A stretch of 30,921 nucleotides of DNA, taken from a virus. Position numbers and translations under genes: made by a program. The notes beneath the pieces are model-generated. The model was not told where the DNA came from and did not search any database. It worked only from the letters and a program-made list of their open reading frames with translations. The DNA lies in IMG/VR virus record IMGVR_UViG_3300045988_097310, positions 1-30,921 of that record. One strand, given 5' to 3'. Below, piece by piece: positions 1-30,921 of this stretch (within the stretch, counting starts at the first letter, position 1; every line of letters starts with the position of its first letter).

Positions 1-55
1 AAACAAGATTTACTTGTAAGTGGAACTAATATCAAAACAATCAATAGTCAGTCTT
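1..55. repeat. 55-nt terminal overlap, identical to 30867-30921 (circular closure of the contig)
   Basis: I compared the two ends base by base and they match exactly. The fiber reading frame is preserved across the junction. Confidence 0.9.
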
Positions 56-678
56 TACTTGGAGAAGGTAATATAGAAATTGAAAGTGGCTCTAATATTC
101 CATTTCTATTTATAAATTCCATTACTCATCTTTCTGGAGATTTCGCTGCTGTTAAGAATGCTATAGCTAATAAAACACCATTTGAGCTTTATTATGTAAA
201 TATTCTAGGTTATGGTGATATAGCAGCTCCAGAAGTATGTTTTGTTTCAGGAGAAAATATTCAAGCTACTTTCCATTTTGAAAGTACTACAGCTAATCAT
301 ACTGTAGTTCAAACTACTATTACTCCAACTGGAGTATCAGCAGATACTAGTTATCATAGTTATCAGGAGCAATTAGTCTCTGGGACTAATATAAAGACTA
401 TTAATGGTGAAAGTATTTTAGGAGAAGGTAATCTTGAAATATCTGGTAGTGGAGGGACTACCGATTATACTCAGTTAACAAATAAACCTCAGATTAATTC
501 TGTTGAGTTATCTGGCAATAAGAGTTTATCAGATTTAGGTATTCAGCCTGCTGGAAACTATATTGAAGCTGGAACTGGAACCCAACCTCAAATAAATACT
601 ATTACTGTTCTAACTCAATCAGAGTATGATGGTTTATCAACTAAAGATCCTAATACACAATATTTAATTGTAGAATAA
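1..678 (+). CDS. Tail fiber-like protein, 3' part of a gene that wraps the contig junction (start at 29409; about 711 aa in total)
   Basis: Frame 1 is open from base 1 to TAA at 676-678. It is in phase with the open frame 29409-30921 once the 55-nt terminal overlap is removed. It carries repeated (L)VSGTNIKTIN..S.LGEGN motifs and a fiber-like C-terminus (TQSEYDGLSTKDPNTQYLIVE). Confidence 0.75.
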   Translation, partial: KQDLLVSGTNIKTINSQSLLGEGNIEIESGSNIPFLFINSITHLSGDFAAVKNAIANKTPFELYYVNILGYGDIAAPEVCFVSGENIQATFHFESTTANHTVVQTTITPTGVSADTSYHSYQEQLVSGTNIKTINGESILGEGNLEISGSGGTTDYTQLTNKPQINSVELSGNKSLSDLGIQPAGNYIEAGTGTQPQINTITVLTQSEYDGLSTKDPNTQYLIVE

Positions 679-679
679 T

Positions 680-1801
680 ATGAATATTAGAGATGGTTTA
701 AAAACATTTTATGTAGGTGACAGACAAGGTACTGCTATTTATATTGGCAGTACCAAAGTCTGGCCTATCAATCCTTGTAATCCACAAATAGTTACAGTTG
801 CTAATCCAGTTCCTCAAGGCACTACAATAGTTGATCCTTGTAGTTATGTATTTAGCAGTTATGATGGAACTATAAATGATATACAAAGGGATTGAATGGG
901 TAGAGGATCTGGCCTTACTTCTACAGTAATTAGTTTTACTGCTGATTTAAGTGAATTAGCCCTTAATATAGATGGTGTACCTCTTTGTAGTATTATAGGT
1001 TCTGCTCAAACATATGCAGATGTAAAGTTAAATAGTGGAGATTTAAGTAGAAAAGGAGGGTTTTTTAAAACATCTCATTTTGATCTAAATAACCAGGAGA
1101 TTACTAATCTTAATGAAGCATATGGAAGATGGTATAGTGAATCTCAATTTTTGGGTCAAACAATACATAGTGCTACTTTATCTAATGTTAAAATACCTAC
1201 AACTACTAAAGAAGTAAGTGCAAATTATTTATTTATTGGAGTAGAAATAGATAATAATGATTTCTCTGTAATGAATAATTTTCAAAATCTTGTATTAGTA
1301 GATCCAAAATGGGCATTTGCAGAGACAGCTGATGGAGCTACTAATATAGATAATATAACGATTAATATTCCATTTAAAGGAGATTGTAATCATATGTTTC
1401 ATAGAGCATTATATCTAACAACTATTCCAAGTAATTTTACCTTTACTGGAATTACAGATATAAGCTATATGTTTAGTACTTGTAGTAGATTAACAGCTAC
1501 ACCAGAAATAGATTGCCATCTTGTTACAGATTGTACTAGTTTTGCTGCAAATTGTCCAGAATTAGTAACTGTAGGAGCTTTAAATGGATTAGGAGAGAGT
1601 TTAACTAAAGGAGGAGTTCTTTATTTTGCACAATCTCCAAATTTATCTACAGATTCATTACAAAATATAGCAGAATCTATTGGCACAGCAGTAAGTTCTA
1701 ATACAAGTATATCATTCAAATCTACTGCATATGATAAATTAACAGATGAACAGAAATCATTAATCGCTTCAAAGAATTGGAGCATAAATCGAGTTGCATA
1801 A
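680..1801 (+). CDS. Fiber/receptor-binding candidate with DUF285 (BspA-like) repeats; track ORFs 680-895 and 896-1801 fuse through TGA 893-895
   Basis: Both track ORFs share one frame and are separated only by TGA. The sequence has DUF285-like repeats (NHMFHRALYLTTIP, ISYMFSTCSRLTATPEI, CTSFAANCPELVTV). The C-terminus EQKSLIASKNWSI is paralogous to the end of 2698-3717. Confidence 0.7.
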
Positions 1802-1803
1802 TT

Positions 1804-2040
1804 ATGAAAATTGAAATTAAAGAAAAATATAAAGTAGTTAGTCCAGAAGAAGGTTATGTACTTACTAACTATAAAGAAGGAATGGATATTAAATTATACA
1901 GTTCATTTACTGAATGTATCTGTCCTTTAAGTTGCGATTTAGAGCATCTATCAGAAGTCTCTTTAGATAAGGATGCTGAATATAAAGAGTTAGCTATTAA
2001 AGCTTCTAAAGAGTATGAGGAATCAATAAAAGTTAGATAA
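1804..2040 (+). CDS. Hypothetical small protein (78 aa) in the fiber cassette
   Basis: ATG at 1804 follows the upstream stop closely, and the frame is open to TAA at 2038-2040. I recognised no motif. Confidence 0.5.
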   Translation: MKIEIKEKYKVVSPEEGYVLTNYKEGMDIKLYSSFTECICPLSCDLEHLSEVSLDKDAEYKELAIKASKEYEESIKVR

Positions 2041-2042
2041 TT

Positions 2043-4530: not shown

Positions 4531-4906
4531 TCTTGTTCTTCAGCATACTGTAACAAAACAAATTTATATTTATAATTTAAATAATCAGAATTATTCTGAA
4601 AATATATATTATAAATTTGATATAACGTTAGATGATAATACACCAGATGGAGAGTATCAGTATGTATTATTTTATAACCCAAATAAATGGGAAATCGTCA
4701 TAGACCCAAATAACATATATCAAGATCAGTACAATAGCTATGTATTAGTCACCTATGATAATATATTAACTACAAATACTAAAATTCTGATAGCTGGAAA
4801 ACCTATTCCAATTCTTAGTACTGGTTTAATTAGAATTGGGGATTATGAAAATCAAAGATACCAATATGATAGACAAAATCAATATATAAGCTATGAAAGA
4901 AAATAA
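4520..4906 (+). CDS. Hypothetical protein (128 aa) upstream of the portal gene
   Basis: Intact ORF that overlaps the upstream stop and the portal start. I recognised no family. Confidence 0.55.
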   Translation: MNYSLVLQHTVTKQIYIYNLNNQNYSENIYYKFDITLDDNTPDGEYQYVLFYNPNKWEIVIDPNNIYQDQYNSYVLVTYDNILTTNTKILIAGKPIPILSTGLIRIGDYENQRYQYDRQNQYISYERK

Positions 4907-5981
4907 AATAAAATCAAATCTAAAACTCTCAGCCATAGATCCTTTCATTCAATCTAACATCGTTCTTCCAACGGAAACAAGGAAAAGAGGTTCTGATATG
5001 ATAATGTGAGGAGAAGATAACAAATATCCATTATATCTATGGGATTTATATTTAAATGTTGCTACTCTCCAATCTATTATTAATGGTTCTGCTGACTTTA
5101 TTGTTGGTAATGATGTTAAATGTAATGCTCCAGGATTTGAGGTAGTTGTAAACAAGAAAGGTGAAACAATAGTTGATATAATGAGAAAAATCACTATTGA
5201 TAAGATGATATTTGGAGGTTATGCTATCCAAGTAATTAGAGATATGCTTGGAAGAGTTGCAGAGATCTATCATATTGATTTTATGAATGTAAGGTCGAGT
5301 GAAAAGAATGATGTATTATATTATGCAACTGATTGGACAGCTTGGTCTGTAAAAGCTATAAAATATCCAAAATTTGGAGCTGGGGATGAAAATCCAGCTA
5401 GTATATTTTATAATAAAGGTTATATAACAAGAGGAGTATATCCTATTCCTGTTTATGGGGCTGCTATTTTATCTTGCGAAACTGAGAAAAATATTAATGA
5501 ATTCCATTTAAATAACATCAATAATGGATTTATGGGTAATCTTATTATTAACTTTAATAATGGGGAACCTACAGATGAAATTAGAGAGGAGATTGAGAGG
5601 AATATTAATGAGAAGTTCTCTGGTTATCAGAATGCTGGCAGAATATTGATTTCATATAATGCAGATGAGGCAAATAAGACTACTATTGAAAGATTAGATT
5701 CTGATGATTTTGATGAGAAATATCAATCATTATCTGAGAGAACCAGAGATCAAATATTCTGTGCCTTCAGAGCTAATCCTAACTTATTTGGAATTAACTC
5801 AGATTCAACTGGTTTTAATGAGCAAGAATTTGAATCTTCATTCAAGCTTTATAATAGAACTATGATTAGACCTATTCAGAAAGAGATTTGTGATTCATTT
5901 GATAAGATCTTTGGAATGCAGAATTCAATCACAATTTCACCATTTAGCCTTAATGAAGCTGATACTAAACAAGTTGAATAA
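4893..5981 (+). CDS. Portal protein
   Basis: ATG 4893 is in frame with track ORF 5181-5981, and the only interruption is TGA 5007-5009 (MIM-W-GEDNKYPLYLWDLY). Length (362 aa), position and the portal-like N-terminal region (QSIINGSADFIVGNDV) fit a portal. Confidence 0.75.
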
Positions 5982-6665: not shown

Positions 6666-7091
6666 ATGACGTATTTTGAATTAATAAACAATTTAAAAGC
6701 TTGTGCTCTTGAAGAACCCAATATTAATTTTGTAGGAAGTAAGGATATATATGAACTTAATAGTATCCCAACTATTGAATATAATGTATTTTATATAACT
6801 CCAAATACATTTAATATGGATGAGGATACTATTACTTACTCTTTAAATCTCTATTTTATAGCAAGATGGGATGAGACTGATAATAATCAGCTTGAAGAGC
6901 AATCAGCTGGAATATTAGCATTAACTAATATAATTAACCGATTTAATAACCAATATCCAGAAGTTGATATTTCTTATCCTTTAATTTTTACTCCATTTTA
7001 TCAGAAGTTCAAAGATATTTGTACTGGAGTATTTGTTAGAGTTGATTTAGCTGTAGACAATACTCTGGGTACTTGTTCTGATAATATGTAA
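6666..7091 (+). CDS. Hypothetical structural (neck or tail-completion) protein
   Basis: ATG 6666 lies directly after the upstream stop and is in frame with track ORF 6564-7091. The gene sits in the head-tail joining neighbourhood. Confidence 0.55.
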   Translation: MTYFELINNLKACALEEPNINFVGSKDIYELNSIPTIEYNVFYITPNTFNMDEDTITYSLNLYFIARWDETDNNQLEEQSAGILALTNIINRFNNQYPEVDISYPLIFTPFYQKFKDICTGVFVRVDLAVDNTLGTCSDNM

Positions 7092-7747
7092 TGGAAAATA
7101 AATTAAACTGGTTTGGAAAGGTATTAGAATGAGTAGATAAATATGGATTACTAAAGATATTTAAAGCAGGGATTGGATTAATATTTATATCCTATGTAAT
7201 GGTTATTACACTTAATCCCTCTATTGTTTATAATAAGGTTGTAACCTATATTGAACAAACTCACAATTCTAAAACTATTGCAAGAAATGAAGCAACTTTG
7301 AAGATTAAATATAAGCTTAAAGAATTGCTTCAAAGTACCAATGCTGATAGAGCTTGGGTTATTGAATATCATAATGGAACTACTGGATTAGGAGGACTTC
7401 CATTTACCTATGGAGTAATGAATGCAGAGGAAGTAAAACCAGGAATAAGACCTGTAAGTAGCCATTATAAAGATTTCCTGTTATCTGACTATACTTCAAT
7501 TATAGAGTTTTCTAAGAATGATGGATGGTTTGGTAATATAGATAGTTTAGAAGCAGATGATCCAAGATTATATTATGCATTTAAATCCAACAGAGTGAAT
7601 GAAATAGCAGTATTTTATTTAAAGACTGAGGATAAAGATATTGGCATTTTAGGTTTATCATTCTGTGATACACCTATGCCTTATGATACTTGAGTACATC
7701 TAAGAAGAGCTGGAATACAGATAAGTATAATTTTAAATAAAATATAA
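7091..7747 (+). CDS. Membrane-anchored protein (218 aa), first gene of the putative lysis cassette
   Basis: ATG 7091 overlaps the upstream TAA. TGAs at 7130 (VLE-W-VDKYG) and 7691 (YDT-W-VHL) are in frame. A hydrophobic helix (LLKIFKAGIGLIFISYVMVITL) lies near the N-terminus. The stop is TAA at 7745-7747. Confidence 0.6.
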
Positions 7748-7748
7748 T

Positions 7749-7910
7749 ATGAAATATTGGTTAAAATATGTAATTGCAGTAGTTATTATTCTGCTGATAT
7801 GTTTACTAATTAAAGTAATTCCTTTTTGGATTACTGTAGTATTACTTGTAATAGGTGTAGCTTCACATCTATTTTATAGATACGTTATGATTAAAGATGT
7901 ACTTAAATAA
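7749..7910 (+). CDS. Small two-TM protein (53 aa), holin candidate (too short for the ORF track)
   Basis: Translation is MKYWLKYVIAVVIILLICLLIKVIPFWITVVLLVIGVASHLFYRYVMIKDVLK. It has two hydrophobic segments and a charged tail. It lies immediately upstream of the endolysin with a TAATG overlap. Confidence 0.5.
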   Translation: MKYWLKYVIAVVIILLICLLIKVIPFWITVVLLVIGVASHLFYRYVMIKDVLK

Positions 7911-8362
7911 TGAAGTATTTCACACTCGAAGAATTAACAAGATCTGATACTGCTTCAATTAAGCATATAGATAACACTCCAGATGAGAGTATAACAGAGC
8001 ACCTGATAGAGTTGGTCGAGAAGCTTTTAGACCCAATAAGAGAGAGATGGGCAAAGTATTGTGATGACAATCAGCTTGGTAACGCAGGCATCAGGATTTC
8101 CTCTGGTTTTAGAAATAAGGAGCTTAATAAAGCAGTAGGAGGATCTTCAACTTCTGCTCATTTAACAGGGTATGCAGCAGATATATCTCCAATTAATGGT
8201 AATATGAAAGTATTCCAAAGTTGGATTGCTGAAGCTATTGAAGAATTTGATTTCGACCAGTTGATATATGAAAGGCCTAGGAATGGTATAGCAAGTTGAA
8301 TACACTTGGGATTAAAGAATAAAGACGGGATGCAAAGACGACAGAAATTTACTATTATATAA
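7910..8362 (+). CDS. Endolysin, zinc peptidase M15 (VanY / D-Ala-D-Ala carboxypeptidase-like)
   Basis: Carries SGFR, the metal motif SAHLTGYAADI (H..G.A.D) and GIAS-W-IHLG. The W of the conserved SWIH motif is encoded by TGA 8297-8299. The stop is TAA at 8360-8362. Confidence 0.85.
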
Positions 8363-8955
8363 TGTTTTACTATTGTTATAAAATAATTTTAACTGCAGGT
8401 ACATTAAGAGGCAAGTATTATATTGGGAAAAGGATTTATAGAGGTAAAGACATAAATAAAGATCCATATAAAGGATCAGGAAGGATTATTACTAATTATT
8501 ACAAAAGATTCCCTAATGCATACCAAAAGATTATTTTGGCAACTTGCACTAATGCAGATGAATTATCTAAATTAGAATACAAACTAATTGGAGATAAATG
8601 GGACACTGATCCTATGTGTTTAAATTTGAAACCTGGAGGAGAAGGAGGCAATTACGGAGTCAAATTTAATTCTGAATGAAAGAAGAAACTGTCTAATTCT
8701 AATAAGGGAAAGAAACATAATTGCCCAGAATCTTGAAGAGTTAAAGTAGATGCTCATAACAAACAAAGATGTCGTAAAGTAGCTCAGTATGATTTAGATG
8801 GTAATTTTATTCAAGAGTATGAAAGTTGCACAGAAGCAGCCAAATCTGTAGGAACTGATAGAGGAGCTATTAGTAGAGTATGTGGTGGATTAGCAAATAC
8901 AGCTAAAGGATTCAAGTGAAGATATGTTAATAAAAAAGAAAAGGAGGGCAAATAA
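8362..8955 (+). CDS. Divergent GIY-YIG-type homing endonuclease with a C-terminal DNA-binding module
   Basis: N-terminus CYKIILTAGTLRGKYYIGKR. In-frame TGAs lie at 8677, about 8734 and 8917. The last gives the family-typical AKGFK-W-RY ending. Confidence 0.65.
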
Positions 8956-8970
8956 CCCTCCTTTTTGTTT
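8941..8970. terminator. Bidirectional intrinsic terminator between convergent gene blocks
   Basis: AAGGAGGG / loop caaataa / CCCTCCTT followed by TTTGTTT. It lies between the end of the plus-strand GIY-YIG gene and the end of the minus-strand block. Confidence 0.7.
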
Positions 8971-9109
8971 ATTCCATTATCTCAAATAATTTCTCATCTT
9001 TAGGTATTAATTCTCCAGTTTGTAAATCTACTAAGAATTTACTATTTTCGGGAATTACATAAACGTAATTTACTCCATTTAAGCATAATTTATATGTAAA
9101 GTACTTCAT
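8969..9109 (-). CDS. Hypothetical small protein (46 aa)
   Basis: ATG at 9109 and TAA at 8971-8969, hand-translated (MKYFTYKLCLNGVNYVYVIPEN...). Last gene of the minus-strand operon. Short, so weakly supported. Confidence 0.35.
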   Translation of the reverse strand: MKYFTYKLCLNGVNYVYVIPENSKFLVDLQTGELIPKDEKLFEIME

Positions 9110-9110
9110 A

Positions 9111-9251
9111 TTAGTCAATATATGTTGCGTTAGGAATCTCTGGTTTGGGTGTTTCTTTTACTTCTTCCCAAACTAAACCTCTATTCTGGTTTTCTAGTTG
9201 AACTATTCTATATTCTAGTTCTTCAAGCTTTTTAAATAAATAATCATCCAT
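9111..9251 (-). CDS. Hypothetical small coiled-coil protein (46 aa)
   Basis: Hand-translated as MDDYLFKKLEELEYRIVQLENQNRGLVWEEV... It is tightly packed against its neighbours. Confidence 0.35.
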   Translation of the reverse strand: MDDYLFKKLEELEYRIVQLENQNRGLVWEEVKETPKPEIPNATYID

Positions 9252-9253
9252 AA

Positions 9254-9415
9254 TTAATCAAATTTAGAAATAAACATATAATCTTTATCTTTTAATACTT
9301 TATCTATAATATCACCAAATCTTTTAGTAGCCTCTTTACATTCGAGCATTCATTTATCCAATTCTTTAATATACTCTTCTGTTTGTTTAATTGTTTCTTT
9401 AATATCACTTTCCAT
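9254..9415 (-). CDS. Hypothetical small protein (53 aa) with one in-frame TGA
   Basis: Hand-translated as MESDIKETIKQTEEYIKELDK-W-MLECKEATKRFGD... Under the standard code this would be two mini-ORFs joined at TGAATG. Confidence 0.35.
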
Positions 9416-9433
9416 ATCACAAATATAATATTT

Positions 9434-11298: not shown

Positions 11299-11330
11299 CA
11301 AATATAATACATAAAAATTAAATTTCCAAA
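11299..11330 (-). promoter_or_regulatory. Bacteroidota-type promoter (-33 TTTG, 20-nt spacer, -7 TAtaTTTG) facing the helicase operon
   Basis: Plus strand shows CAAATATA at 11299-11306 and CAAA at 11327-11330. These are the reverse complements of TATATTTG and TTTG, with a 20-nt spacer. Confidence 0.6.
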
Positions 11331-11378: not shown

Positions 11379-11409
11379 CAAATATAATAATAAATTTTTA
11401 TTCTGCAAA
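11379..11409 (-). promoter_or_regulatory. Second Bacteroidota-type promoter (-33 TTTG, 19-nt spacer, -7 TAtaTTTG)
   Basis: CAAATATA at 11379-11386 and CAAA at 11406-11409 on the plus strand. The core and flanks (ACTrCAAATATAATA) are near-duplicates of the 11299 site. Confidence 0.55.
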
Positions 11410-11959: not shown

Positions 11960-11991
11960 TTTGGAAATTGAATAAAAATGTATTATCTTTG
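11960..11991 (+). promoter_or_regulatory. Bacteroidota-type promoter (TTTG, 20-nt spacer, TAtcTTTG) for the plus-strand early block
   Basis: TTTG at 11960-11963 and TATCTTTG at 11984-11991, 44 nt upstream of ATG 12036. Divergent from the minus-strand block. Confidence 0.6.
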
Positions 11992-12035: not shown

Positions 12036-12275
12036 ATGAAAAAAATAAATAAAATTTTAGTTGGTCTTTTAATTGCATCTTCAATTGTTGCAGGTTTTAG
12101 AGTAAATGAAGTCTATCAGGAAAGACAACATAAAACATTTGAATTAAGATTAGAAAGAGCAGAATTAAAACATAAATTAGATTCAGTAATGTGGGTTAAT
12201 CCAGCAAGTGAAGAAGTATCTAATTTATATGAAGAATATTGTGATTTAACACTTAAAATTAATAATATAAAATAA
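12036..12275 (+). CDS. Small N-terminally membrane-anchored protein (79 aa)
   Basis: Intact ORF with a hydrophobic N-terminus (ILVGLLIASSIVAGF). First gene after the promoter. Confidence 0.5.
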   Translation: MKKINKILVGLLIASSIVAGFRVNEVYQERQHKTFELRLERAELKHKLDSVMWVNPASEEVSNLYEEYCDLTLKINNIK

Positions 12276-17398: not shown

Positions 17399-17401
17399 CT
17401 T

Positions 17402-20131: not shown

Positions 20132-20133
20132 TT

Positions 20134-23100
20134 ATGAGAAAGAATATTAAACTATTTATTGCAAATAAAGAGGTTGACTGTAGTGAGGGAATTAGTCTTC
20201 CTATGACATATACTGTTGAGGATTTCCAAAACCCCACTATAGTCAAGAACTCGTTTAGTAAAACGATTTCTATACCTGGCACAAAGAATAATAATAAGAT
20301 TTTTGGAGAGATTTATAAGTTAGATAGATTTCTCCATATAAAAGAAGGTAATTTCTCTGGAGTATATTTTGATCCTTCAAAACGAGTTGATTTTGGAATT
20401 TATAATAATGGCTATTTAGTTGAATCTGGATATATGCAATTAAATAGCATATCTATAAAACAAGCTGTCATTACTTATAATATTACTTTATATGGAGGAT
20501 TAGGAGATTTCTTCTATGGACTTAAATATAAAGAAGATGGTACTATTAGGACTCTTGCTGATTTACAATACTTTGTAACTGATGAAGATGGGAATACACT
20601 TCCTGCTGATACTGAACTTAATTTTTATATTAACAAAGATTTTGTAAATACTTGTTTTGACTGAAGTAAAACGAATGAAGGAAGTCAAATATATGATTAT
20701 TTGACATTTATTCCAGCATATAATGGTTTATATGAAGATTTTGATAATGAAAGTTGTTTAATAAATACTAATGAAAATAGTATATTTCCTACTAGTAAGA
20801 CAGATTCAGGAGTTACATATACACCTTATAATGGATATGGATTAGCTAAATTAAATAGAGCATATACAGAATGGGAGATGAGAGATCTTAGAAGTTATAT
20901 GCAGAGGCCAGCTTTAAAATTGAGTAAGTTAATTGAAACTATCTGTAGAAAAGAGAATTCTGGATATGATGTAGTATTTGATCCTTCATTTTTTAATTGA
21001 AATAATCCGTATTGAAGTAAATCCTTTGTAGCTTTACCTTTATTATCTAATCTAGTAAGTGACGAAGCAGATGTAACAGAATCTGGCTTTTTAGTAGAAG
21101 ATAGTAAATATAATTATCAGGTAGGTATAAATAAAGGAGAATCTACATCAAGTCCTTTAAAATTATCCATTGCATCACCTGATATTGTTTACGATTCTGG
21201 AATAATTGATTTAAGTGAGGCTGGATTTAGAAAAAGCCTTTCTACAACTTTTTATTTTAAGTTAAAGTTTAATCGAACTGCAGGAAATGTTGGGGATAGA
21301 TATTTTTTTGGATTTAGAAGGTATTTTAGCTCCTCTGCTCCTCCTTTTTATTCAGCATATAGAGGATACGCTGATGTTTGGCTAACAATTACTAATGAAG
21401 TAGATGATACTATTTATACTTCTGAAATACATAGATTTACAAATTCAGGAACCTACTCACATCCTATAGCTAATGGGGTTAATCATTTTGGGTATTTTCA
21501 AAATAATGTATTTTATGATACTTCTTCATTAACTAATGATTTTGTTATTAATATTACAAATTTTAAAATTCCAATTAATAAAATTAAAATTAAACTTAAT
21601 GTTGTATGATCTACTGGAAATAGTGTTAGACCTACTGGATTATTAAGTGAAGTAATAGAAAGAGGAGAGGATTACCAAGCTATTCCAAAAGGAGATCTTA
21701 TAGTAGATCTTACTTCTCCCATTGAAATTACTACTTCTACAGAGGTACTTCAAAGTAATGCATTATTAACTAAAAAATTATTATTAAAAACAGAACAATC
21801 TCCTGCTGATTACTTATTGAGTTATGCAAAACTATTTGGGTTATATTTTACAAAAGATATTGATAGTAAAACAATTAGAATATATACTAGAAATAATTTC
21901 TTTAAGAATATAATCTCTGATTGGAGTAAGAGAATAGATTATTCTAAAGATTTCAATGTAAATCCAATATTATTTGATAAGAAGTGATATAGAATGAGTT
22001 CTGAAGGTCCAGAAACTTATTTTTATAAAAAATACAATAAGGAATATTCTATATTATATGGTCAACAAAGATTAAATACTGGTTATAATTTTAATTCTGA
22101 AACAACTGAACTGTATAGTGATAATATATATGAAAATATAGTTTCTGCAAGATGGAGAAATAAATATTTTAGAAATTTTTACAATTCTTCTTCCCTTGTA
22201 GTTCCTGCATTTATGAATGATAATATTACCTATACATTATTTAATAATAGCACTACTGAACTTAAGACTATAGATCAAGAGTTATACGGAGCTAATTTTA
22301 TAGATCCCTCTAAAACCACAGAATGATATAAAATCGCAGGTAATGATATATTTGCCAAAAATGTATTTTTCTCAATTGATGGTAATGAGGAATCTTTAGA
22401 GGATATCTCTCAATCCCTAGTATTCTTTAACGGTAATGTTCCTTTAACTGATGTAAAAGGAAATGAAGTAACATATTGAATTACAGATGATCTTACAGAA
22501 ATGAACATATTAAATGATCAGGAAATGTGTTATATATCTACTAAAAGTGAGAAAGATATTAGGGGGAATAAAATTGCTATAAAGAGAACTGTATTACCTC
22601 AATTTACAAGGTATACCGTTTCGTCCTCTAATGTTACTGCTTCTTGAGATTTTGGATTACCACAAGAGATTTATATTGATGATATAACTTATAATATCGG
22701 AAGTACTATTTATAGTAGATTCTGGAGTGAATTTTATAATGATCAATTTGATGTAAATACTAAAAAAGTTACCTGCTTTGTAAGATTGGATGATTTAGAT
22801 GTTAAGTATGATTTACTTAGACAGTTCTATTATTTTGAAGATTCTTACTGGGTACTTAATAAGATTGATGCTTATGATATTAATTCAGATTCTACAGTTA
22901 GATGTGAATTTATTAAAGTTCAAGATATTAATAGTTATTTAGCTGGAATTCAAAATTTAGGTGAGTATATATCATTTGACGATTCAGATCCAGTTGTAGA
23001 TTATAAAGCTGGGACTAAAAAGATTACAGTTACTTCTAATATTCCTTGAGAATTAGGATGATATAGTCCAAATGAAATTGTAAGCATTACACCTGAATCT

Positions 23101-23493
23101 GGGCAGCCTGGAGAAACAGAATTGACAGTTACATATAATGAGAATACTACATATAATCAAAGGAGTTTCTATTTTAGTCTTTATAAACAAGGAAGTATAA
23201 ATGGCCCTCAATGTATGTTTACTCAAACTCCAGACCCAAATAAAGCTATTCTTATTACAGGAAAGCTTCAAACTTCTACTGGAGGTATTCCTTCTGGCGT
23301 TAATCAGATTCTAACTGAAAATGATAATTTCTTAAATGTCACTTATATGAGAGATGATGGAAGTTATAGAATATATGCTCAAAATGGAGTTCAATTTTTA
23401 TTTAGAGTATCTGACGGACCAACAGGAACAGTTAAATATACAGAGAATTTAACACTAACAGAAGATACTGTTAAAAACGTAACTATAAACTAA
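20134..23493 (+). CDS. Very large tail hub / receptor-binding protein (1119 aa) with a C-terminal BACON-like domain
   Basis: Five track ORFs share one frame. I hand-translated the gaps 21001-21993 and 22327-22785 and found no TAA or TAG, including a stretch of about 198 codons with no Met. There are ten in-frame TGAs (20662, 20998, 21013, 21607, 21985, 22324, 22477, 22645, 23047, 23059). NIP-W-ELG-W-YSPNEIVSITPESGQPGETELTVTYNENTTYNQRSFYFSL is BACON-like. Confidence 0.7.
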
Positions 23494-23494
23494 T

Positions 23495-25828
23495 ATGGCT
23501 GAAGAAATTAAAAAAGTAATTAGTGTAGATACTAAAACCAGTTCAAAGTCGATCAAGCAGCTACGAGAAGAAGTAGCTGGCTTGACGGCTGAACTTGAAG
23601 ATCTTGAGATTGGTAGTACTGACTATACTAAAAAGCTTGAAGAACTTGTTAATGTTCAAAATAAGTTAGGTGTTGCTACAGAATCTATGCAAGGTAAAAC
23701 TGTAAATGCAGTTAAGGCGTTTGACAGTATAAATCAAGTAGCAGGAGGTTTAGCTGGAGGAGTTTCAGCTGTTAGTGCAGCATTCACTTTATTTGGAAAA
23801 GATACAGAGAATCTTCAAAAAACTATGGTTAAATTGCAAGCAGCAATTGCTATAGTTCAGGGAATTGGAGGATTAAAAGGTTTAGGTGAAGGTATTCTTA
23901 ATGGAGTAAAATCATTTAAAGCCTTATCTGTAGCAATGGGTGGTGCTACGGCTGCAACTGGAGGATTATCTGTAGCAATGGGTGTGCTACGGTCTGCAAT
24001 TATATCTACAGGAATTGGAGCTTTAGTTGTAGCTCTTGGTATGTTAATAGATTTTGCAATTAAAGCAGCATCAGGAATTGATGATTTAAAAATTAGTATT
24101 TCTGGTTTAAAAGATATAACTGATCAATGAGGAACAAGTTACTCCAGAGCTAATACTGAAATTGCAGGATTGGAGAGACAAAGAGAGAGAGATTTAGCTG
24201 CTGGTAAAAAAAGTGAAATACAAATTTGGAAAGATTATGCTGAAGCATTAGGAGATTTAGATGCTGAATTATTTCATCAATTTGGCAGTGTAACTAAAGC
24301 ATATTCTGACTCATTTACTAATATACTTAAAAGTAATAAATACTTCAAAAAAGAATTTAAGAAATCTGGATATGAAACTTGGGAAGATTATTCCAAAGCA
24401 ATACAATGAGGATTAAAGAATAGTTCTAATGAAGTTGATTTCTTTTTAAGTAAGTTAAATGAGGATCAAAAAGCGGCTTATGATGAAGCTTCTGGTATTT
24501 ATAATACATATCTTGAGAAGCGAAATGATTTAATGCAAAAATCTGCTGAAGCTTATGAAAAAGTTAAGTTAATGGAGATTGCTGCAGAACGTAAGCAGAG
24601 AGAAGATGCTAAAGCCCAGTATCTAAAGAATATAGAAGATAGAAAGAAACATAATCAAGATCTGCTTAAAGTTATTAACGATTTCTATGAAGAAAATAGG
24701 AAACTTCTTTTAGATGATGAAGCAAGAGAACTTGATGAATTAAATAGAAACTACCAGAATCAATTAGATGCACTTAAAGAAGCCTATAATCTCAAATTAA
24801 TAACAGTTAAAGAATATAATGAGAGATTAAAGCAGGTAAATGATGCATATAATAAAGAGTGACTAGATAATAATAATGAACGTTATAGAGAAGACTTAGA
24901 AAATAGATTATCTGCATTACAAGAAATGCAAGATAGGGAATCTCAATTATTTGCAAATAAAGAGGCTGCATTATCTGCAGGTAAATCTGGAAGTTATGAA
25001 ACTAGAGTTCAACAATTTGGTTCAACGGATTTTTATCAATCTGGAGAAGATGTTCAAAGACAATATCAAGATACATTAGCTTATAATGAACAGTTATATA
25101 ATCTCACTAAAGATAGAATTACAAGAGAGAATGAATTGATGTCTCAACAGCAAGCTATTTTAGATGAGCAATATAACAATAAGCTGATAACTGAACAAGA
25201 ATATGCCAATCAATCTCAAGCAATTAAATTACAGCAAGAAGCTAATGATATAGCTTTATCAGAAGCAGCTAATGCAAGAGAAGAAGCAGATCTTCAAGCA
25301 TTTAAAGATAGACAAGCTAAAAAGCAACAGGCTATTCAAGCTACTATGAATGTAGCTTCTTCTTTAAGTGGAGCTTTAGCTAATGTATTTAAACAAGAAG
25401 CTAGTGATGATTCAAAATCAGAGAAGCAAAGAGAGAAATCATTTAAAGTTTATAAAGCATTAGCTACTACTCAAGCTATTATTGATACTATCAGTTCTGC
25501 CCAAGGTGCATATAAAGCTATGGTGGGTATTCCATTTGTAGGACCTATTCTTGCTCCTATTGCAGCTGCTACTGCTGTTATAGCTGGTATTGCTAATGTA
25601 AAAGCTATCCAAAATGAGCAGCTTCCTTCATCTGGAGGTTCTGGAAGTGATGCAGGAACTACTGCTCCTGCTGCTTTAAATACAGCTCCTGTAGAATATA
25701 CTCGAAACTTACTTGGCAATAAAGAGACTGATGAATTGAATCAACCAGTTAAATGTTATGTAGTTGAGAGTGATATTACTACTGCTCAAACTAAAGTTGC
25801 AGTTACAGAATCAAATGCAAGTTTCTAA
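23495..25828 (+). CDS. Tape-measure-like or internal/ejection protein (777 aa)
   Basis: Four track ORFs share one frame and are joined through TGAs at 24128, 24407 and 24860. The protein has long coiled-coil Q/E/K-rich regions plus Gly/Ala-rich hydrophobic segments (GGLAGGVSAVSAAFTLFG, GIPFVGPILAPIAAATAVIAGIA). Confidence 0.65.
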
Positions 25829-26023: not shown

Positions 26024-26614
26024 ATGGAAAAAATGTATAATGATCTTCCATTATATCAAGCAATTATTGCTGATGATTGTGATGGAATAGAGTTCGTAGC
26101 ATTGACCAGTAAACCTGCAACCCAAGTTAATTGGCTTGCTTTTGGGGAATCTCAGAAGTTCTCGATGGATGAAGAAAAACATATAGTTACTTCTTGTTTA
26201 ATGGTATGTGATATACCTATATTTAGACGGGATAGTAAAAACGGAGAATATTATATTCAATATGATAAAGAAACTCTCCGTTTAATGGCTGAAAAAATGA
26301 TGTATGATAAGAGAACTACTGATGTAAATATTGAACATTTGGAAGATTCAGTAATTCCTGGAATAATTCTTCAAGAACTATATATTAAAGATATAGATAG
26401 AGGAATTAATCCAGTTGAATTTGCTGATTGTCCAGATGGTTCATTATTTGCTACTTATAAAGTAAATAATCCTGTTATATGGGATGCAATTAAAGCTGGC
26501 AAGTTTAAAGGGTTCTCTATTGAGGGATTGTTTACTTTAGAAAGACAATCTGATGAATATGAGGAACTTAAAGAGATTCAAAAAATGTTGAGAAAAATAA
26601 AAAGAGTTAAATAG
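26024..26614 (+). CDS. XkdF-like (Peptidase_S78_2-type) prohead protease candidate
   Basis: Pattern VALTSKPATQVNWLAF...IEH...GSLFATYKVNNPVIWDAIKAGKFKGFSIEG resembles the XkdF family. First gene of the capsid module. No TGA. Confidence 0.65.
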   Translation: MEKMYNDLPLYQAIIADDCDGIEFVALTSKPATQVNWLAFGESQKFSMDEEKHIVTSCLMVCDIPIFRRDSKNGEYYIQYDKETLRLMAEKMMYDKRTTDVNIEHLEDSVIPGIILQELYIKDIDRGINPVEFADCPDGSLFATYKVNNPVIWDAIKAGKFKGFSIEGLFTLERQSDEYEELKEIQKMLRKIKRVK

Positions 26615-26615
26615 A

Positions 26616-27227
26616 ATGTATAGTGGAGTTATATATCTAGCAACAAATCTTATAAATGGCAATAAATATGTAGGACAAACAAATAATTTCTTGAGAAGAA
26701 AGAATGAACATAAATACAGTTCTAATCTTACATATTTTCATAGAGCGATTAGGAAATATGGATTCAATAACTTTAAATGGGAAATTCTTCAAATCTTTTG
26801 TTGTTCTTCTACAGAATTATTGAAAAGACAACTAAATAATGCAGAAATTAAATATATTCAGTTATTTGATACATTAAATAATGGTTATAATTTAAATGAA
26901 GGTGGAGGTTCTAATACTGGATTTAAACACAGTGAAGAATCTAAACACAAAATGTCTTTAAAACAGTCTGGAAGAGTATTAAAGGATGAAACAAAATTAA
27001 AGTTAAGAGAATGTAGATTAGGAACTAAACAAACTGAACAGCAGAAAGAAAAAGTAAGTAAACGTATAATTATGACAGATATTAATGATACTTATATATG
27101 CACTTGGAAATCTGCTATGGACGCTGAAAGAAACGGAAATTTTGATCATAGTGCTATTATAAAATGTTGCAAAAATAAACAAAACTATCATAAAAATTTT
27201 AAATTTAAGTATGAACAAATTAACTAA
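26616..27227 (+). CDS. GIY-YIG homing endonuclease, paralog of 3865-4530, free-standing inside the capsid module
   Basis: GVIYLATNLINGNKYVGQT...RRKNEH...RAIRKYG...NGYNLNEGG aligns with the 3865 gene along most of its length. No TGA. Confidence 0.85.
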   Translation: MYSGVIYLATNLINGNKYVGQTNNFLRRKNEHKYSSNLTYFHRAIRKYGFNNFKWEILQIFCCSSTELLKRQLNNAEIKYIQLFDTLNNGYNLNEGGGSNTGFKHSEESKHKMSLKQSGRVLKDETKLKLRECRLGTKQTEQQKEKVSKRIIMTDINDTYICTWKSAMDAERNGNFDHSAIIKCCKNKQNYHKNFKFKYEQIN

Positions 27228-27825
27228 ACTGAGAATCGAACTTAGTAAACTCTTAGCAAAATTTAACGATGTTAAGACTAGTGCTGGAGTTCTAACTTAC
27301 GATGGTAGTGAGGATGAGGATCTAAGGGCAGGTATGAGTGTATATACAATGGATACCGATACTGGCGAATATGCACCTGCTGCTGATGGTGAGTATGTTA
27401 CCGAAGATGGCAAAACGATTGTTGTTAAAGACGGTAAAGTAGAGTCCATTACTGATCCTAAAGCTGAGGTTGATCCTGAAGAGGGTATGAGAACTGTTGA
27501 GGTTGATGCTGCTTGTGGAACTAAGAAAGTAAAAGCTGAGGAAGTTACTGATCCTGCTGTTGAAACAGACGGTGTTAAAGAAACTGAGACTGATGCAATC
27601 GACGCTATTCATCGCGAAATTAATGAGCTTTACGATATTGTAGATAAGCTTGTTAAGAAAGTAGCAGAACTTGAAGGAAAATCAGAAGCTACTGAAAAGA
27701 CTGTAGAAAAAATGAGTAAGATGAGTGCTGCTTTTTCAGCAGAGGAAACACTTGAAAATAAAACAACTGCTCCTATAAGTGGGATAGCAGAAATAGATAG
27801 AAAGCTTAAAAACTTTATTGGTTAA
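27211..27825 (+). CDS. Scaffolding protein candidate
   Basis: Acidic, low-complexity and coiled-coil protein. It lies between the protease and the major capsid gene. Confidence 0.55.
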   Translation: MNKLTKLRIELSKLLAKFNDVKTSAGVLTYDGSEDEDLRAGMSVYTMDTDTGEYAPAADGEYVTEDGKTIVVKDGKVESITDPKAEVDPEEGMRTVEVDAACGTKKVKAEEVTDPAVETDGVKETETDAIDAIHREINELYDIVDKLVKKVAELEGKSEATEKTVEKMSKMSAAFSAEETLENKTTAPISGIAEIDRKLKNFIG

Positions 27826-27846
27826 TTTATAAAATTTTAAATAATT

Positions 27847-28752
27847 ATGGCAAATAGTCCTGTAATGACAACTCTTCCTGCTTATGTGGAGCAAAGACGT
27901 CTCCCTCTTATTAAGGAAGCGGTTTTAAAAGCTAAGAGTGCAAGTTTATTTAATCTTCAGACAGATATTAAAACTGATGCTGCTCTTAACCTGTTATCTA
28001 CCGATGTTCAGTTCGGTGATGGTCTTACTTGTGGTTGGGATGAGTCTGGAACTCAGACTCTTTCTCAGAGAATTCTTAAGACTGGTAATATTAAGATTAA
28101 TATGGCATATTGCGATAAGGCTATGCTGAAATACTGGACTCAGTATGCAGTTAAGGTAGCCGCTGGTCAGAAGACTCTTCCTTTTGAAGAGGATTTCGTA
28201 AATGCTGTTGTAGAGAACGTAAAAGAGGCTATTGAGATAGCTATCTGGCAGGGTGATACGGCTTCAGAAACTAATAACCTGAAGTATTTTGATGGTCTGT
28301 TAAAGATCCTTGGTGCTGCTGATGGTGTTGTTGATGTAACAATTGCTGGAACATCTGCCTATACTGACATTATGGCAGTTTATAATGCAATTCCTGAGAA
28401 GGTTCTTGATGGTGCTTCGATTCTTGTTGGTGCCGATATGTTCCGTAAGTTCGTAAATGAACTTGTTGAGAAGAACTATTTCCACTATAGCGGAGAGAGC
28501 CTTGATGGTGAGATTTATCTTCCTGGTTCACAGGTTAAGGTTATTGCTGTTAATGGTCTTAATGGAACTGATAAGATTGTTGCTGGTCAGTTAGACAAGA
28601 ATTTCTTCTATGGTGTAGATATGATGAACGATGAAGAGAAATTCGAATTGTGGTATTCACAGGATTTCAGAGAATTTAGATTAGCTATTGAATTTAACGC
28701 TGGTGTACAGGTTGCATTCCCTGACGAAGTAGTATTAGGTGCCAAGGCTTAA
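27847..28752 (+). CDS. Major capsid protein (HK97-fold type, 301 aa)
   Basis: Size, position after protease and scaffold, biased codon usage, and a strong terminator at the end of the operon. All four Trp are TGG. Confidence 0.75.
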   Translation: MANSPVMTTLPAYVEQRRLPLIKEAVLKAKSASLFNLQTDIKTDAALNLLSTDVQFGDGLTCGWDESGTQTLSQRILKTGNIKINMAYCDKAMLKYWTQYAVKVAAGQKTLPFEEDFVNAVVENVKEAIEIAIWQGDTASETNNLKYFDGLLKILGAADGVVDVTIAGTSAYTDIMAVYNAIPEKVLDGASILVGADMFRKFVNELVEKNYFHYSGESLDGEIYLPGSQVKVIAVNGLNGTDKIVAGQLDKNFFYGVDMMNDEEKFELWYSQDFREFRLAIEFNAGVQVAFPDEVVLGAKA

Positions 28753-28792
28753 TTTCAATAGATTTTATTAACTTCTAAATGATATTGAAATT

Positions 28793-29317
28793 ATGGCTTG
28801 TTTAATAACTATCGCAGGAATCACACTTGATTGCCAACCTTCATTGGGTGGAATCAAACAGGTATGGATTACCCAGTATGCAGATGTTAAAAGTGTAACG
28901 GTTGATCCTGAGAGCAATATGATTTCAGCTATTACTCTTGAGTCTTCAGCTAAATGGTATAACTACCAATTTAGAAAGGCTACTGGTTCTCTAACCTCAA
29001 CTTTAAATGTAGATGAAAGTGCTGGTGTTAATTATGTAAGTAATGAGCTTGCTCTTGTATTTACAAAGATGGAAACAGCAAAACGAGTAGAGATTGCAGC
29101 TTTATCAATTGGTCAGCTTGCAGTTGTTGTTGAAGATAGCAATGGTAAGTATTGGTTCTTAGGTAAAGATGATTATGTAAGCGCTTCCGCTGGTACGGGT
29201 GTTACTGGTACTGCTAAAGGTGATCAGAATGCTTATACTCTGACACTTTCAACAGATTCAGATTCTTATCCTTATGAGTTATCTGCAGAAGCTATCCAAA
29301 GCGTTGTAGGTGCTTAA
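28793..29317 (+). CDS. Tail tube-like (major tail) or head-decoration protein (174 aa)
   Basis: Follows the major capsid gene with the same codon bias. The pattern ...VVVEDSNGKYWFLGKDD...GTGVTGTAKGDQNAYTLTLS... resembles siphovirus tail-tube proteins. The assignment is tentative. Confidence 0.45.
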   Translation: MACLITIAGITLDCQPSLGGIKQVWITQYADVKSVTVDPESNMISAITLESSAKWYNYQFRKATGSLTSTLNVDESAGVNYVSNELALVFTKMETAKRVEIAALSIGQLAVVVEDSNGKYWFLGKDDYVSASAGTGVTGTAKGDQNAYTLTLSTDSDSYPYELSAEAIQSVVGA

Positions 29318-29328
29318 TAACAGAAAGA

Positions 29329-29365
29329 GGGGCGAGTATTAATTTACTTGCCCCTTATTTTGTTT
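29329..29365 (+). terminator. Rho-independent terminator ending the capsid operon
   Basis: GGGGCGAGTA / loop ttaatt / TACTTGCCCC (10 bp with one G-T pair) followed by TTATTTTGTTT. Confidence 0.75.
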
Positions 29366-29408
29366 ATATACCACATAATGAATAATTTATATTTTATAGA
29401 AAAATAAT

Positions 29409-30921
29409 ATGGCAAACGAAACTGAAAAGACAATTCTTCCCTATCTTAATGTCCTTGAAGTCGAAACAATAGATAAGTCAAATGTGACTAAAGTTATTGT
29501 TATTGACAAGGATGATGAAGTTAAGGTTATGGATGGTTCTCAGTTAGGATCAAGTAACTATCAAGATCTTCAATTTAAGCCTGAAATCAATGGGGTTGAA
29601 TTAAATGGAAATATTCCTTCTAAAGAATTAGGAATTCCTTCTATTGAAGATGTTGATAATCAGATTACTGAGAAACTAGCTGACTATCCAACTAAAGAAG
29701 AGGTAACTACAGAGATTACTGAAGCCACTGCTGGAAAGCAAAATACACTCGTTCAAGGTGACGGTATAGTAATTGAAGAGAATACTATTTCTGCAGATTA
29801 TAATACTATTCGTAACAAACCATCTTTAAATGGAACTGAATTATCTGGAGCAGCTTCAATAGTACCTGCCATTAATATTCAATCAGTCCCATCTAAAGTT
29901 ACTTTAGCTCCTGTATTTGGTAATCAAACTGGAGAAGCAGTTGAACTTCCAATATATAATACAGAGACTAATCAAGCTGGTATTGTTAATGGTCCTCTAT
30001 ATGCACAATTAGCAGATAAATATACTAAAGCTGAAATTGATGCTTTAAATACAGCTATTAATAAAGAGATAGCTTCAAAACAAGGAACGCTTACAGCAGG
30101 AAAGAATATATCTATTATAGATAATGTAATCTCTGCTTTTGAGAATCATTTCTTACTTAATTTAGATGAGAATGATCCTGTAAGACAGAAACATATCTAT
30201 GACTTTATTAGAACTAATCTGGACTTCTATTTATTCTGCCAGATTACATATAAAGGTGATATTATAGTTATTCCTGTTGCAACTATTGAGCATCCCGAAA
30301 CTATTGATTTATATGGCTATTATTTCCAAGATAATGGTGTATTAGTAGTTATTAATGCAATCTTAGTAAATAATGGTAATATGACTGTTAAAGTTACTGA
30401 GGTTGATCTTACTAATAAAGGTTATACTAAAGATGAAGTAGATGAGAAACTTGCAACTAAGCAAGGTGTATTTACTCCACAAGCTCCATTAGCTTTTAAT
30501 GAAGATAAATCCCAATTATCTGTAGATTTATCTGGATACCAACCAGTTGGTGATTATGCTTTAAAGAGTGATATTCCAACTAAAATTAGTGAGCTTACTA
30601 ATGATTCTAACTTTGTAAGTGAAGCAGAGGTTTCTGGAGATTTAGCAGGTAAAGCAGATAAGACTTATGTTGATGAGCAGCTTGCTACTAAACAGCCTGT
30701 AGGAGATTATGCAACAAAAACAGAACTTGCTGGTAAAGCTGATTCTTCTGTGGTAGAATCTCTATCTACTCAAGTAGCAACTAATACTTCAGACATATCA
30801 ATTATTAAAACAAAGCAAGAAGAAGATGGAAACAAGATTGATGCTCTTGATAAAGAGATGGCTACTAAACAAGATTTACTTGTAAGTGGAACTAATATCA
30901 AAACAATCAATAGTCAGTCTT
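29409..30921 (+). CDS. Tail fiber-like protein, 5' part (continues at base 1 after removing the 55-nt overlap)
   Basis: ATG 29409 opens a frame with no stop to the window end. It has periodic fiber repeats (LATKQPVGDYATKTELAGKADSS) and no TGA. Confidence 0.75.
   Translation, partial: MANETEKTILPYLNVLEVETIDKSNVTKVIVIDKDDEVKVMDGSQLGSSNYQDLQFKPEINGVELNGNIPSKELGIPSIEDVDNQITEKLADYPTKEEVTTEITEATAGKQNTLVQGDGIVIEENTISADYNTIRNKPSLNGTELSGAASIVPAINIQSVPSKVTLAPVFGNQTGEAVELPIYNTETNQAGIVNGPLYAQLADKYTKAEIDALNTAINKEIASKQGTLTAGKNISIIDNVISAFENHFLLNLDENDPVRQKHIYDFIRTNLDFYLFCQITYKGDIIVIPVATIEHPETIDLYGYYFQDNGVLVVINAILVNNGNMTVKVTEVDLTNKGYTKDEVDEKLATKQGVFTPQAPLAFNEDKSQLSVDLSGYQPVGDYALKSDIPTKISELTNDSNFVSEAEVSGDLAGKADKTYVDEQLATKQPVGDYATKTELAGKADSSVVESLSTQVATNTSDISIIKTKQEEDGNKIDALDKEMATKQDLLVSGTNIKTINSQS

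Follow-up and report, generated by a model that had tools for sequence, protein, structure and literature searches.

A complete 31-kb gut phage genome that reads TGA as tryptophan without recognisable decoding genes of its own

The IMG/VR record IMGVR_UViG_3300045988_097310, analysed here over its full length of 30,921 nucleotides (the window), is a complete circular phage genome in which TGA is read as tryptophan (genetic code 4) and in which no gene for this unusual reading could be recognised. The original prediction, made from the letters alone, had claimed that no UGA-decoding machinery is visible, and ARAGORN, Rfam and protein profiles indeed all came back empty. As a complete genome thus lacks transfer RNA (tRNA), release factor and aminoacyl-tRNA synthetase genes, UGA is decoded by something outside the recognisable gene set of the phage. 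The host likely belongs to the Bacteroidota, and we infer that it uses the standard code. How a standard-code cell would come to read UGA as tryptophan is explained here, tentatively, by an early phage product that lowers the activity of release factor 2 (RF2).

The completeness of the genome follows from its ends. Bases 1-55 are identical to bases 30867-30921, and the window is accordingly a closed circle with a unit of 30,866 bp and no gene beyond its ends, by which a tRNA located outside the window is ruled out. The G+C content amounts to about 29% overall and to about 36% over the last 4-5 kb. In translation table 11, the longest open reading frame (ORF) comprises 578 amino acids (aa), compared with 1122, 780 and 731 aa when TGA is taken as sense. 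Only in the latter reading do the genes tile the genome and are terminase, portal and M15 peptidase intact. Code 4 yields a coding density of 95.8% (main genes and four extra small ORFs) and leaves nine gaps of 21-265 nt each, 1,288 nt in total, close to the stretches of about 60-250 nt anticipated in the original prediction. Pfam models identified a portal protein, a large terminase (TerL), an S78-type protease, an M15 peptidoglycan peptidase, a DUF6712 protein, a T5orf172 protein and a helix-turn-helix (HTH)/sigma-region-4 protein, and the genome features a complete set of terminase, portal, protease, scaffold, capsid, tail and lysis genes. Profile searches revealed no integrase among the annotated proteins. 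A near-identical genome exists in IMG/VR (IMGVR_UViG_3300045988_114391), and in public assemblies 168 indexed blocks contain the exact capsid protein and 326 the exact protein of gene g13, the largest early gene translatable in the standard code, mostly from the human gut. No integrated copy was found, as every contig with either of these exact proteins is shorter than 50 kb. The element apparently is a very common, virulent-looking and non-integrating tailed gut phage of about 31 kb, and a phage satellite of the P4 or PICI type is ruled out by the full structural and lysis set, the missing integrase and the lack of any occurrence on contigs above 50 kb. GenBank phages showed neither a DNA match nor a capsid-protein match to the window, and the best TerL matches among them are phages of Halorubrum, Meiothermus and Thermus at 25-29% identity.

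The genome uses code 4 with TGA as a tryptophan codon. In-frame TGAs (47) are spread over 20 of the 35 main genes, and genes terminate with TAA (28) or TAG (6) but never with TGA. When the window was aligned with ten near-identical genomes, its TGAs were matched by TGA (223), TGG (15) or TAT/TAC (7) and never by GGN, and its TGG codons were in turn aligned to TGA 25 times. Across about 80 relatives, an interchange of TGA and TGG is frequent in many genes. Relatives using the standard code feature tryptophan 41 times, tyrosine 16 times and glycine three times opposite the TGAs of the window. The TGA of the portal gene alone is faced by tryptophan in 13 and by tyrosine in six of 19 such relatives, and the TGA site of g26 by tryptophan in 11 of 11. 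The absence of GGN opposite TGA and the low number of glycines compared with tryptophans rule out a reading as glycine (code 25).

The search for a decoder covered RNA as well as proteins. ARAGORN predicted no tRNA by default, with introns or in transfer-messenger RNA (tmRNA) mode on the circularised unit. Rfam yielded nothing at gathering score, with no tRNA or tmRNA match in the whole genome at E<=10 (Infernal), and the weak matches to snoR43, sraA and others, all far under their gathering scores, were discarded. Sensitive and organellar searches with ARAGORN had been recommended in the original prediction. Relaxed mode gave 13 hits against 13.2±3.5 and organellar mode 10 against 8.5±3.6 in composition-matched simulations, hence nothing beyond chance and no bona fide tRNA(UCA). 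The relaxed-mode tRNA(tca) hits at about 6104-6201 (minus strand) and 7462-7525 (plus strand) were rejected as chance-level hits, both of them within coding sequence. The motif TTCGAATCC, rightly dismissed before as no part of a tRNA, lies within g13, on the strand opposite to the coding one, and matches no tRNA model. Twenty loci of about 21 kb from close relatives, which jointly span the whole genome type, contained no tRNAs, and with the same tools a TAG-recoded relative of the capsid protein (L127) yielded a clear tRNA(CTA) as positive control. Furthermore, the region 8956-9433 (478 nt) was ruled out as non-coding RNA, being occupied by three small ORFs on the minus strand and a bidirectional terminator, and a four-copy hairpin repeat was ruled out as tRNA-like, being a plain AT-rich hairpin without anticodon-arm or T-arm features.

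On the protein side, Pfam, NCBIfam and PHROGs revealed no release factor, tRNA synthetase or tRNA-modifying enzyme among the window proteins, and PHROGs returned nothing for ten unassigned ones. No candidate for a non-canonical decoding factor, the third option of the original prediction, could be identified among them. The structure model of g13 (mean predicted local distance difference test score, pLDDT, of 83) features the ordinary fold of a superfamily 2 (SF2) helicase with two RecA domains and a C-terminal domain, resembling DEAD-box, RecQ and Mfd enzymes and the origin-binding protein of herpes simplex virus 1 (HSV-1 UL9). A function as translation factor is without support from this generic helicase fold with UL9 among its matches, and g13 is probably a replication initiator.

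The original prediction took suppressor tRNAs to be usual in recoded phages, which is overstated. TGA suppressor tRNAs were detected in only 35% of code-4 phages, and undetected divergent suppressors were suggested for the other 65% (Borges et al., 10.1101/2021.08.26.457843). Likewise, some reassigned genomes without a detectable suppressor were described for crAss-like phages of the Zeta group (PMC12386605). Thus, the absence of a suppressor is the majority state among code-4 phages and far less surprising than it had seemed.

Several signals within the genome bear on the host. The core 4-mer of the Shine-Dalgarno (SD) motif precedes three of 35 genes, which is under the background of 10.9% and agrees with the near-absence of SD motifs noticed before. 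Sequences of the Bacteroidota promoter type TTTG-N17-21-TAnnTTTG occur four times with 1.5 expected, which is unremarkable genome-wide; all four, though, are located at operon boundaries (4.2% of the genome), at the edges of the divergent early region. The promoter type had been predicted correctly, whereas the count had been given as three. BACON-like domains, likewise predicted, rank first among the Pfam hits of two tail proteins but amount to sub-threshold hints only (E=0.019 and 0.076, 15.4 and 13.5 bits compared with a cut-off of 25). The M15 peptidase with its holin-like partner was recovered as described, with a clear match to Peptidase_M15_3 and an ORF with two transmembrane (TM) segments directly upstream.

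Integrated relatives of two phage proteins were encountered in larger contigs. A relative of the capsid protein (52% identity) belongs to an element with an integrase gene on a 647-kb contig that is labelled 'Bacteroides sp.', where DUF5063, FtsK, LolA_2 and thioredoxin reductase genes flank the element. The latter (L122 579-12100; USAN01000001.1, 'Bacteroides sp. UMGS1534') comprises about 12 kb with integrase, DUF5906 primase-helicase, terminase, capsid protein and portal but no visible tail genes, and resembles a capsid-forming satellite, or else what is left of a prophage, within a Bacteroidota chromosome of standard code. Among the labelled capsid relatives, only this contig with its flanking host genes was used for host inference. 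The labels of other metagenome-assembled genomes (Lachnospiraceae, Acutalibacteraceae, Saccharimonas and others) were set aside, as they are attached to short free phage contigs that are probably mis-binned. A relative of g13 (45%) was found in a TAG-recoded prophage adjoining a tRNA-Thr gene on a 132-kb contig (L184 5900-21740; ENA ERZ28598220 scaffold_71), whose host genes are intact in code 11 and whose glutamine synthetase (GlnA) is 92% identical to that of Lentimicrobium. Terminase, portal and capsid genes of this prophage are intact only with TAG as sense, its integrase gene is intact in the standard code, and no suppressor tRNA was found in the 16 kb of it that are visible.

The closest apparently standard-code relative is the sister genome L057 (IMGVR_UViG_3300029905_000019; 30,128 bp, 28% G+C) with a capsid protein of 67% identity. 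In 21 of its ORFs, TGA is found neither in frame nor as stop (18 TAA, 3 TAG), and thus it looks like an unassigned or avoided codon in this sister lineage. Such a TGA-depleted state, which L057 fits, was proposed as the start of recoding evolution (Borges et al., 10.1101/2021.08.26.457843).

The promoters at operon boundaries, the absence of SD motifs, the integrated relatives in standard-code chromosomes and the tail-fibre segment in common with a crAss-like phage, which is described below, together make Bacteroidota the likely hosts. With the M15 peptidase added, they also support the cell-walled, Bacteroidota-like host that the original prediction had preferred over Mollicutes.

The usage of TGA is uneven within the genome. 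It accounts for 40% of the tryptophan codons, compared with 71-88% A-ending codons in the A/G pairs of Lys, Glu, Gln, Leu and Arg. Recoded are the genes for tail, lysis, portal and terminase as well as the rightward early operon, in which six of seven genes hold an in-frame TGA. The g13 operon and the capsid module are free of TGA, the latter with 11 TGG codons over its whole extent including the tail-fibre gene g35, which continues across the junction into bases 1-679. Across the relatives (about 80), TGG codons of the window were replaced by TGA in only one of 322 aligned codons of the capsid protein, three of 236 of g34 and one of 161 of g13, compared with 66 of 196 in g10 and 87 of 523 in g27. 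The genes with the highest expression and the earliest gene thus tolerate TGA but are under selection against it. The lack of TGA in the capsid module along with its high G+C content could reflect selection for efficient translation or a recent gain from a standard-code relative.

Early placement and freedom from TGA coincide only in g13, g15 and the three small ORFs 3' of g13, and only about six products could be made before any code switch. All three small ORFs are readable in the standard code, are called as genes in relatives too and represent candidate host-takeover factors. The ORF 9254-9415 contains the codons GAT AAA TGA ATG CTC, with TGA at 9350-9352 (minus strand). TGAATG splits this ORF in the standard code into 21 and 31 aa with a stop-start junction, whereas a protein of 53 aa results in code 4, and the product may therefore differ before and after a code switch, if any takes place.

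A second TGA-recoded phage is linked to the one described here. The 148.6-kb IMG/VR contig IMGVR_UViG_3300045988_175865 turned out to be a phage of this family of about 30 kb joined to part of a crAss-like phage of about 168 kb, referred to as X, and was thereby ruled out as an integrated prophage that could name the host. Full-length genomes of X include IMGVR_UViG_3300029720_000001 and 3300045988_163797. The join occurs via a tail-fibre segment of 2,256 bp, present twice and 100% identical (L051 12312-16066; L111 6225-9119), and the mosaic fibre ORF is in frame across the one junction that was checked. This suggests that two unrelated TGA-recoded phages have really exchanged receptor-binding modules. 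TerL of X matches Crassvirales only, with Bacteroides, Flavobacterium, Cellulophaga and Azobacteroides (all Bacteroidota) as recorded hosts, and X features homologues of g10 (29%) and of the M15 peptidase (37%). Its late genes are TGA-recoded, with 10 TGAs in TerL and 24 in one tail fibre, and TGA:TGG ratios of 67:36 and 69:21 in late genes are opposed to 6-9:27-42 in the early/tRNA region. Such a two-phase pattern is expected only if the cell initially reads TGA as stop.

Of X, 68.7 kb (41%) were read, including apparently the whole tRNA block. This block contains, in scattered arrangement, at least 15 tRNA genes (Leu, three for Met, Lys, Ile, Gln, Thr, Ala, Asn, His, Ser, Phe, Cys, Arg) and a tmRNA; neither tRNA(UCA) nor tRNA-Trp was found in the part read. 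The tmRNA scores 50-53 bits with RF00023 (gathering score 47), with the tag peptide AKNTVRKMANKVMPLATPMRAQVAFAA according to ARAGORN. In addition, a degenerate tRNA-like sequence (L189 233-302), detected by Infernal only (32.6 bits), has well-formed D and T arms, a disrupted anticodon stem and the apparent anticodon AAU, and is probably a pseudo-tRNA.

The explanation put forward here, as a tentative one that we regard as possible rather than probable, is that an early phage product lowers RF2 activity and that the host tRNA-Trp(CCA) then reads UGA. Shortly after infection, a product translatable in the standard code would reduce the RF2 activity of the host, for which the three small ORFs, g15 and possibly g13 are the candidates. 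The host tRNA-Trp(CCA) would then read UGA via near-cognate pairing, and TGA would act as a brake, in that genes bearing it would be translated only after the switch and less efficiently. Such a mechanism would account for the insertion of tryptophan only, for the dispensability of a tRNA, for the cost of TGA in capsid genes and for its exclusion from g13. Phage codes that differ from the code of the host comprise only TGA to Trp and TAG to Gln (Borges et al., 10.1101/2021.08.26.457843), as near-cognate reading would predict.

Nevertheless, several points weigh against this mechanism and the host assignment it builds on. An anti-RF2 factor was not identified, and PHROGs and profile searches returned no homologue with a known function for any of the small early ORFs. 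Near-cognate reading would need enough efficiency to pass 10 TGAs within a single tail protein of 1119 aa. The rightward early operon, including a putative sigma factor, holds TGAs itself, so that decoding would be needed very early, and a constitutively available decoder provided by the host or a resident element would meet this early need more simply. Moreover, the host assignment is indirect, as no spacer match to clustered regularly interspaced short palindromic repeats (CRISPR), integrated copy or physical link stands behind it, and the tail-fibre link rests on the one 148.6-kb contig, itself a join of two phages. Accounting for suppressor-free tryptophan decoding in standard-code Bacteroidota either by a tiny early protein that disables RF2 (from the TGA-free ORFs at 8969-9415 or 12036-12275) or by free-riding on the switch of a co-infecting crAss-like phage is a rather doubtful proposition.

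Decoding might instead be supplied by a helper, with suppressor tRNA(UCA) or another switch factor coming from a co-infecting or resident element, e.g., X. The recoded late genes of X, its homologues of g10 and the M15 peptidase, the identical tail-fibre segment common to X and a variant of the small phage, and the assembly of both into a single contig from one data set are consistent with such a relationship, as is the need of the small phage for decoding from its earliest rightward genes. Still, the 41% of X that were read encode neither tRNA(UCA) nor tRNA-Trp, and a phage with its own structural, packaging and lysis set, which is found as a stand-alone contig of about 30 kb in hundreds of sample blocks, is unlike an obligate satellite. 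Dependence on a helper is considered unlikely.

A host that natively uses code 4, with tRNA-Trp(UCA) and without RF2, is less likely again and now the least likely of the three options that the original prediction had left. It could be an unrecognised table-4 lineage, a member of the Mycoplasmatales or one of the Eggerthellaceae genera CAVGFB01 and JAUNQF01. The spread of TGA over 20 of 35 genes, genes of the early rightward operon among them, its complete absence as stop and the lack of tRNA(UCA) in the phage as well as in the read part of X would agree with such a host, and new code-4 lineages are still turning up. However, AT-rich native code-4 genomes such as those of Mycoplasma and Spiroplasma prefer UGA, whereas the codon is under-used here and purged from capsid, g34 and g13, and X shuns it in its early region. 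Bacteroidota-type promoters, absent SD motifs and relatives in standard-code Bacteroidota chromosomes likewise disagree with this option; M15 peptidase and holin speak against wall-less hosts, and a G+C content of 29% is unlike Eggerthellaceae. In a translation-table survey of 2026, code 4 was assigned to Mycoplasmatales, insect endosymbionts, two Eggerthellaceae genera and two Minisyncoccia groups but to no Bacteroidota, and genome surveys at GTDB scale (>116,000 genomes) reported no code-4 Bacteroidota either, although so common a phage should have a well-sampled host. From the under-use and purging of TGA, the two-phase pattern of X and these surveys, the host is probably not a native code-4 organism.

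Similarly improbable is opal suppression by the host or certain strains of it, i.e., by a UGA-reading tRNA of their own, for instance on a mobile element, or by a naturally weak RF2. A decoder of this kind would be at hand for the first rightward genes, would agree with the lack of a suppressor in the small phage and in the examined part of X, and, if the read-through were partial and costly, would be in line with highly expressed genes avoiding TGA. On the other hand, it does not account for the early genes of X being almost free of TGA, a cell that uses the standard code is usually harmed by constitutive opal suppression, and we know of no Bacteroidota host with opal suppression of its own.

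A hidden non-canonical decoder RNA, i.e., a divergent, split, permuted or coding-embedded tRNA missed by ARAGORN and Rfam, also has little in its favour: phage tRNAs can be aberrant, as exemplified by the tRNA-like sequence of X that only Infernal detected, and the four-copy structured repeat is conserved in intergenic regions, but the non-coding sequence is confined to 1,288 nt with no gap above 265 nt, Infernal found no match to the tRNA clan, relaxed and organellar ARAGORN stayed at chance level, the repeat is a simple hairpin, and the same tools readily find the amber suppressor of the TAG-recoded relative.

The features of the genome are compiled in Table 1. The rightward early/middle operon contains a putative sigma factor encoded by g18 and g19 (within 13186-13732, plus strand). 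The former weakly matches region 2 of sigma-70 factors of the extracytoplasmic function (ECF) type (TIGR02937, E=8e-4), the latter matches sigma-70 region 4 and HTH models. Both genes hold one TGA and overlap by 17 nt in different frames, which suggests a phage sigma factor that is either split or joined by a frameshift. Homing-endonuclease genes vary among near-identical relatives, with, for instance, extra HNH genes in L013 and L018 and g31 missing from several loci, and one such gene of the window sits between the capsid protease and scaffold genes. The copies of the hairpin repeat are intergenic and located at module boundaries, one of them within the minus-strand early region, and a terminator-like GC-rich hairpin follows within about 10 nt 3' of three of the four. 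The repeat is also present in a related phage (L111, 9469-9525) and could serve as a regulator binding site, as a late promoter with TTGACA or as an RNA element.

Table 1. Features of the phage genome, given in window coordinates, and tmRNA-region loci of phage X (last row)
Feature	Coordinates	Strand	Remarks
Terminal direct repeat	1..55	none	55 nt
Hairpin repeat, four copies	3722-3781, 11186-11245, 17349-17408, 25904-25944	+	about 50-60 nt, AT-rich; TGTCA...AAAAACTTGACA / TGTCA...GAGTAAAAAACTTGACA
Homing-endonuclease genes, five	3865-4530, 8362-8955, 12699-13193, 13717-14202, 26616-27227		two GIY-YIG/NUMOD3, one NUMOD1-type, two HNH/NUMOD4
Portal	4893..5981	+	one TGA
Lysis cassette	7091..8362	+	g10, holin-like ORF, g11
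g10	7091-7747	+	TM protein, 2 TGAs
Holin-like ORF	7748-7909	+	53 aa, two TM; directly upstream of g11
g11, M15 peptidoglycan peptidase	7910-8362	+	1 TGA; Peptidase_M15_3, E=2.9e-14
Bidirectional intrinsic terminator	8935..8968		GC-rich hairpin between A and T runs; + and - operons converge
Three small ORFs 3' of g13	8969..9415	-	9254-9415 (53 aa, or 21+31 aa), 9111-9251 (46 aa), 8969-9109 (about 46 aa)
Promoter match	9420..9451	-	TTTG-N20-TATATTTG; upstream of small ORFs
g13	9434..11155	-	573 aa, TGA-free, 5 TGG; SF2 helicase core and C-terminal domain
TTCGAATCC motif	9740..9748	+	inside g13, opposite strand
Promoter match	11299..11330	-	upstream of g13
Promoter match, second	11379..11409	-	upstream of g13
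Promoter match	11960..11991	+	upstream of rightward operon (g15 onward)
Rightward early/middle operon g15-g21	12036..14525	+	membrane peptide, two HNH endonucleases, putative split ECF-like sigma (g18/g19), unassigned ORFs
Large terminase (Terminase_6N/6C)	15295..16542	+	one TGA
Three large tail proteins	17951..25828	+	726, 1119, 777 aa; 16 TGAs; sub-threshold BACON in first two
Capsid and tail-fibre module	26024..30866	+	S78-type protease, GIY-YIG endonuclease, scaffold, major capsid protein, g34, fibre g35
tmRNA region of phage X	L186 10902-11307; L189, L190, L191, L188 10909-11330; L198 1839-2260		

Compared with known systems, the phage is closest in character to the code-4 gut phages described by Borges et al. 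(10.1101/2021.08.26.457843), with which it shares the low G+C content, the alignment of TGA to tryptophan, the absence of TGA stops, a predicted standard-code host among Bacteroidetes or Firmicutes, relatives in other codes, recoded lysis and tail genes and, as in 65% of them, no tRNA found by standard tools. However, the code-4 clades Jade, Sapphire and Agate exceed 100 kb and thus by far the present genome, which also lacks the 'code-change module' of Jade (RF1, tryptophanyl-tRNA synthetase and tRNA). Its layout, with a TGA-free capsid module and a recoded early operon, is unlike a simple succession of early standard and late recoded genes. The Garnet phages of the same study resemble it in size (24-34 kb) and in their association with Bacteroidota, being TAG-recoded and integrated in standard-code Prevotella. 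The TAG-recoded prophage L184 in its code-11 Lentimicrobium-like contig is likened to them by description. Unlike Garnet phages, the phage described here recodes TGA instead of TAG, features no integrase and was never found integrated.

TGA-recoded crAss-like phages, i.e., Lera of the Zeta group (PMC12386605) and X, likewise read TGA as tryptophan in structural and lysis genes, infect Bacteroidota and contain many homing endonucleases. Lera, however, encodes 26 tRNAs including tRNA-Sup(TCA) (PMC12386605), compared with none here, the present genome is five times smaller, and its TerL is not crAss-like. Phages of Mycoplasma and Spiroplasma (code 4) or Absconditabacteria (code 25) are similar in that a suppressor tRNA is neither needed nor present and TGA occurs in many genes. 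The present phage differs from phages of these native UGA-recoding hosts by TGA being tryptophan instead of glycine, by peptidoglycan peptidase and holin, by Bacteroidota-type promoters and absent SD motifs, and by a TGA that is under-used and kept out of highly expressed genes.

The phage represents a compact case of a puzzle, recoded TGA without a suppressor tRNA, that is already known from about two thirds of all TGA-recoded phages. The exclusion of TGA from the capsid genes and the early helicase gene offers a measurable signature of costly or timed UGA decoding, and the tail-fibre link to a crAss-like phage provides a concrete lead to the host. Once this host is identified, a complete and very common genome of about 40 genes with 1.3 kb of non-coding sequence would be a practical minimal system to study a tRNA-independent switch or the dependence on a helper. 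If either the disabling of RF2 or free-riding proved true, this genome of about 40 genes would pin down a decoding mechanism, which has yet to be established for most TGA-recoded phages.

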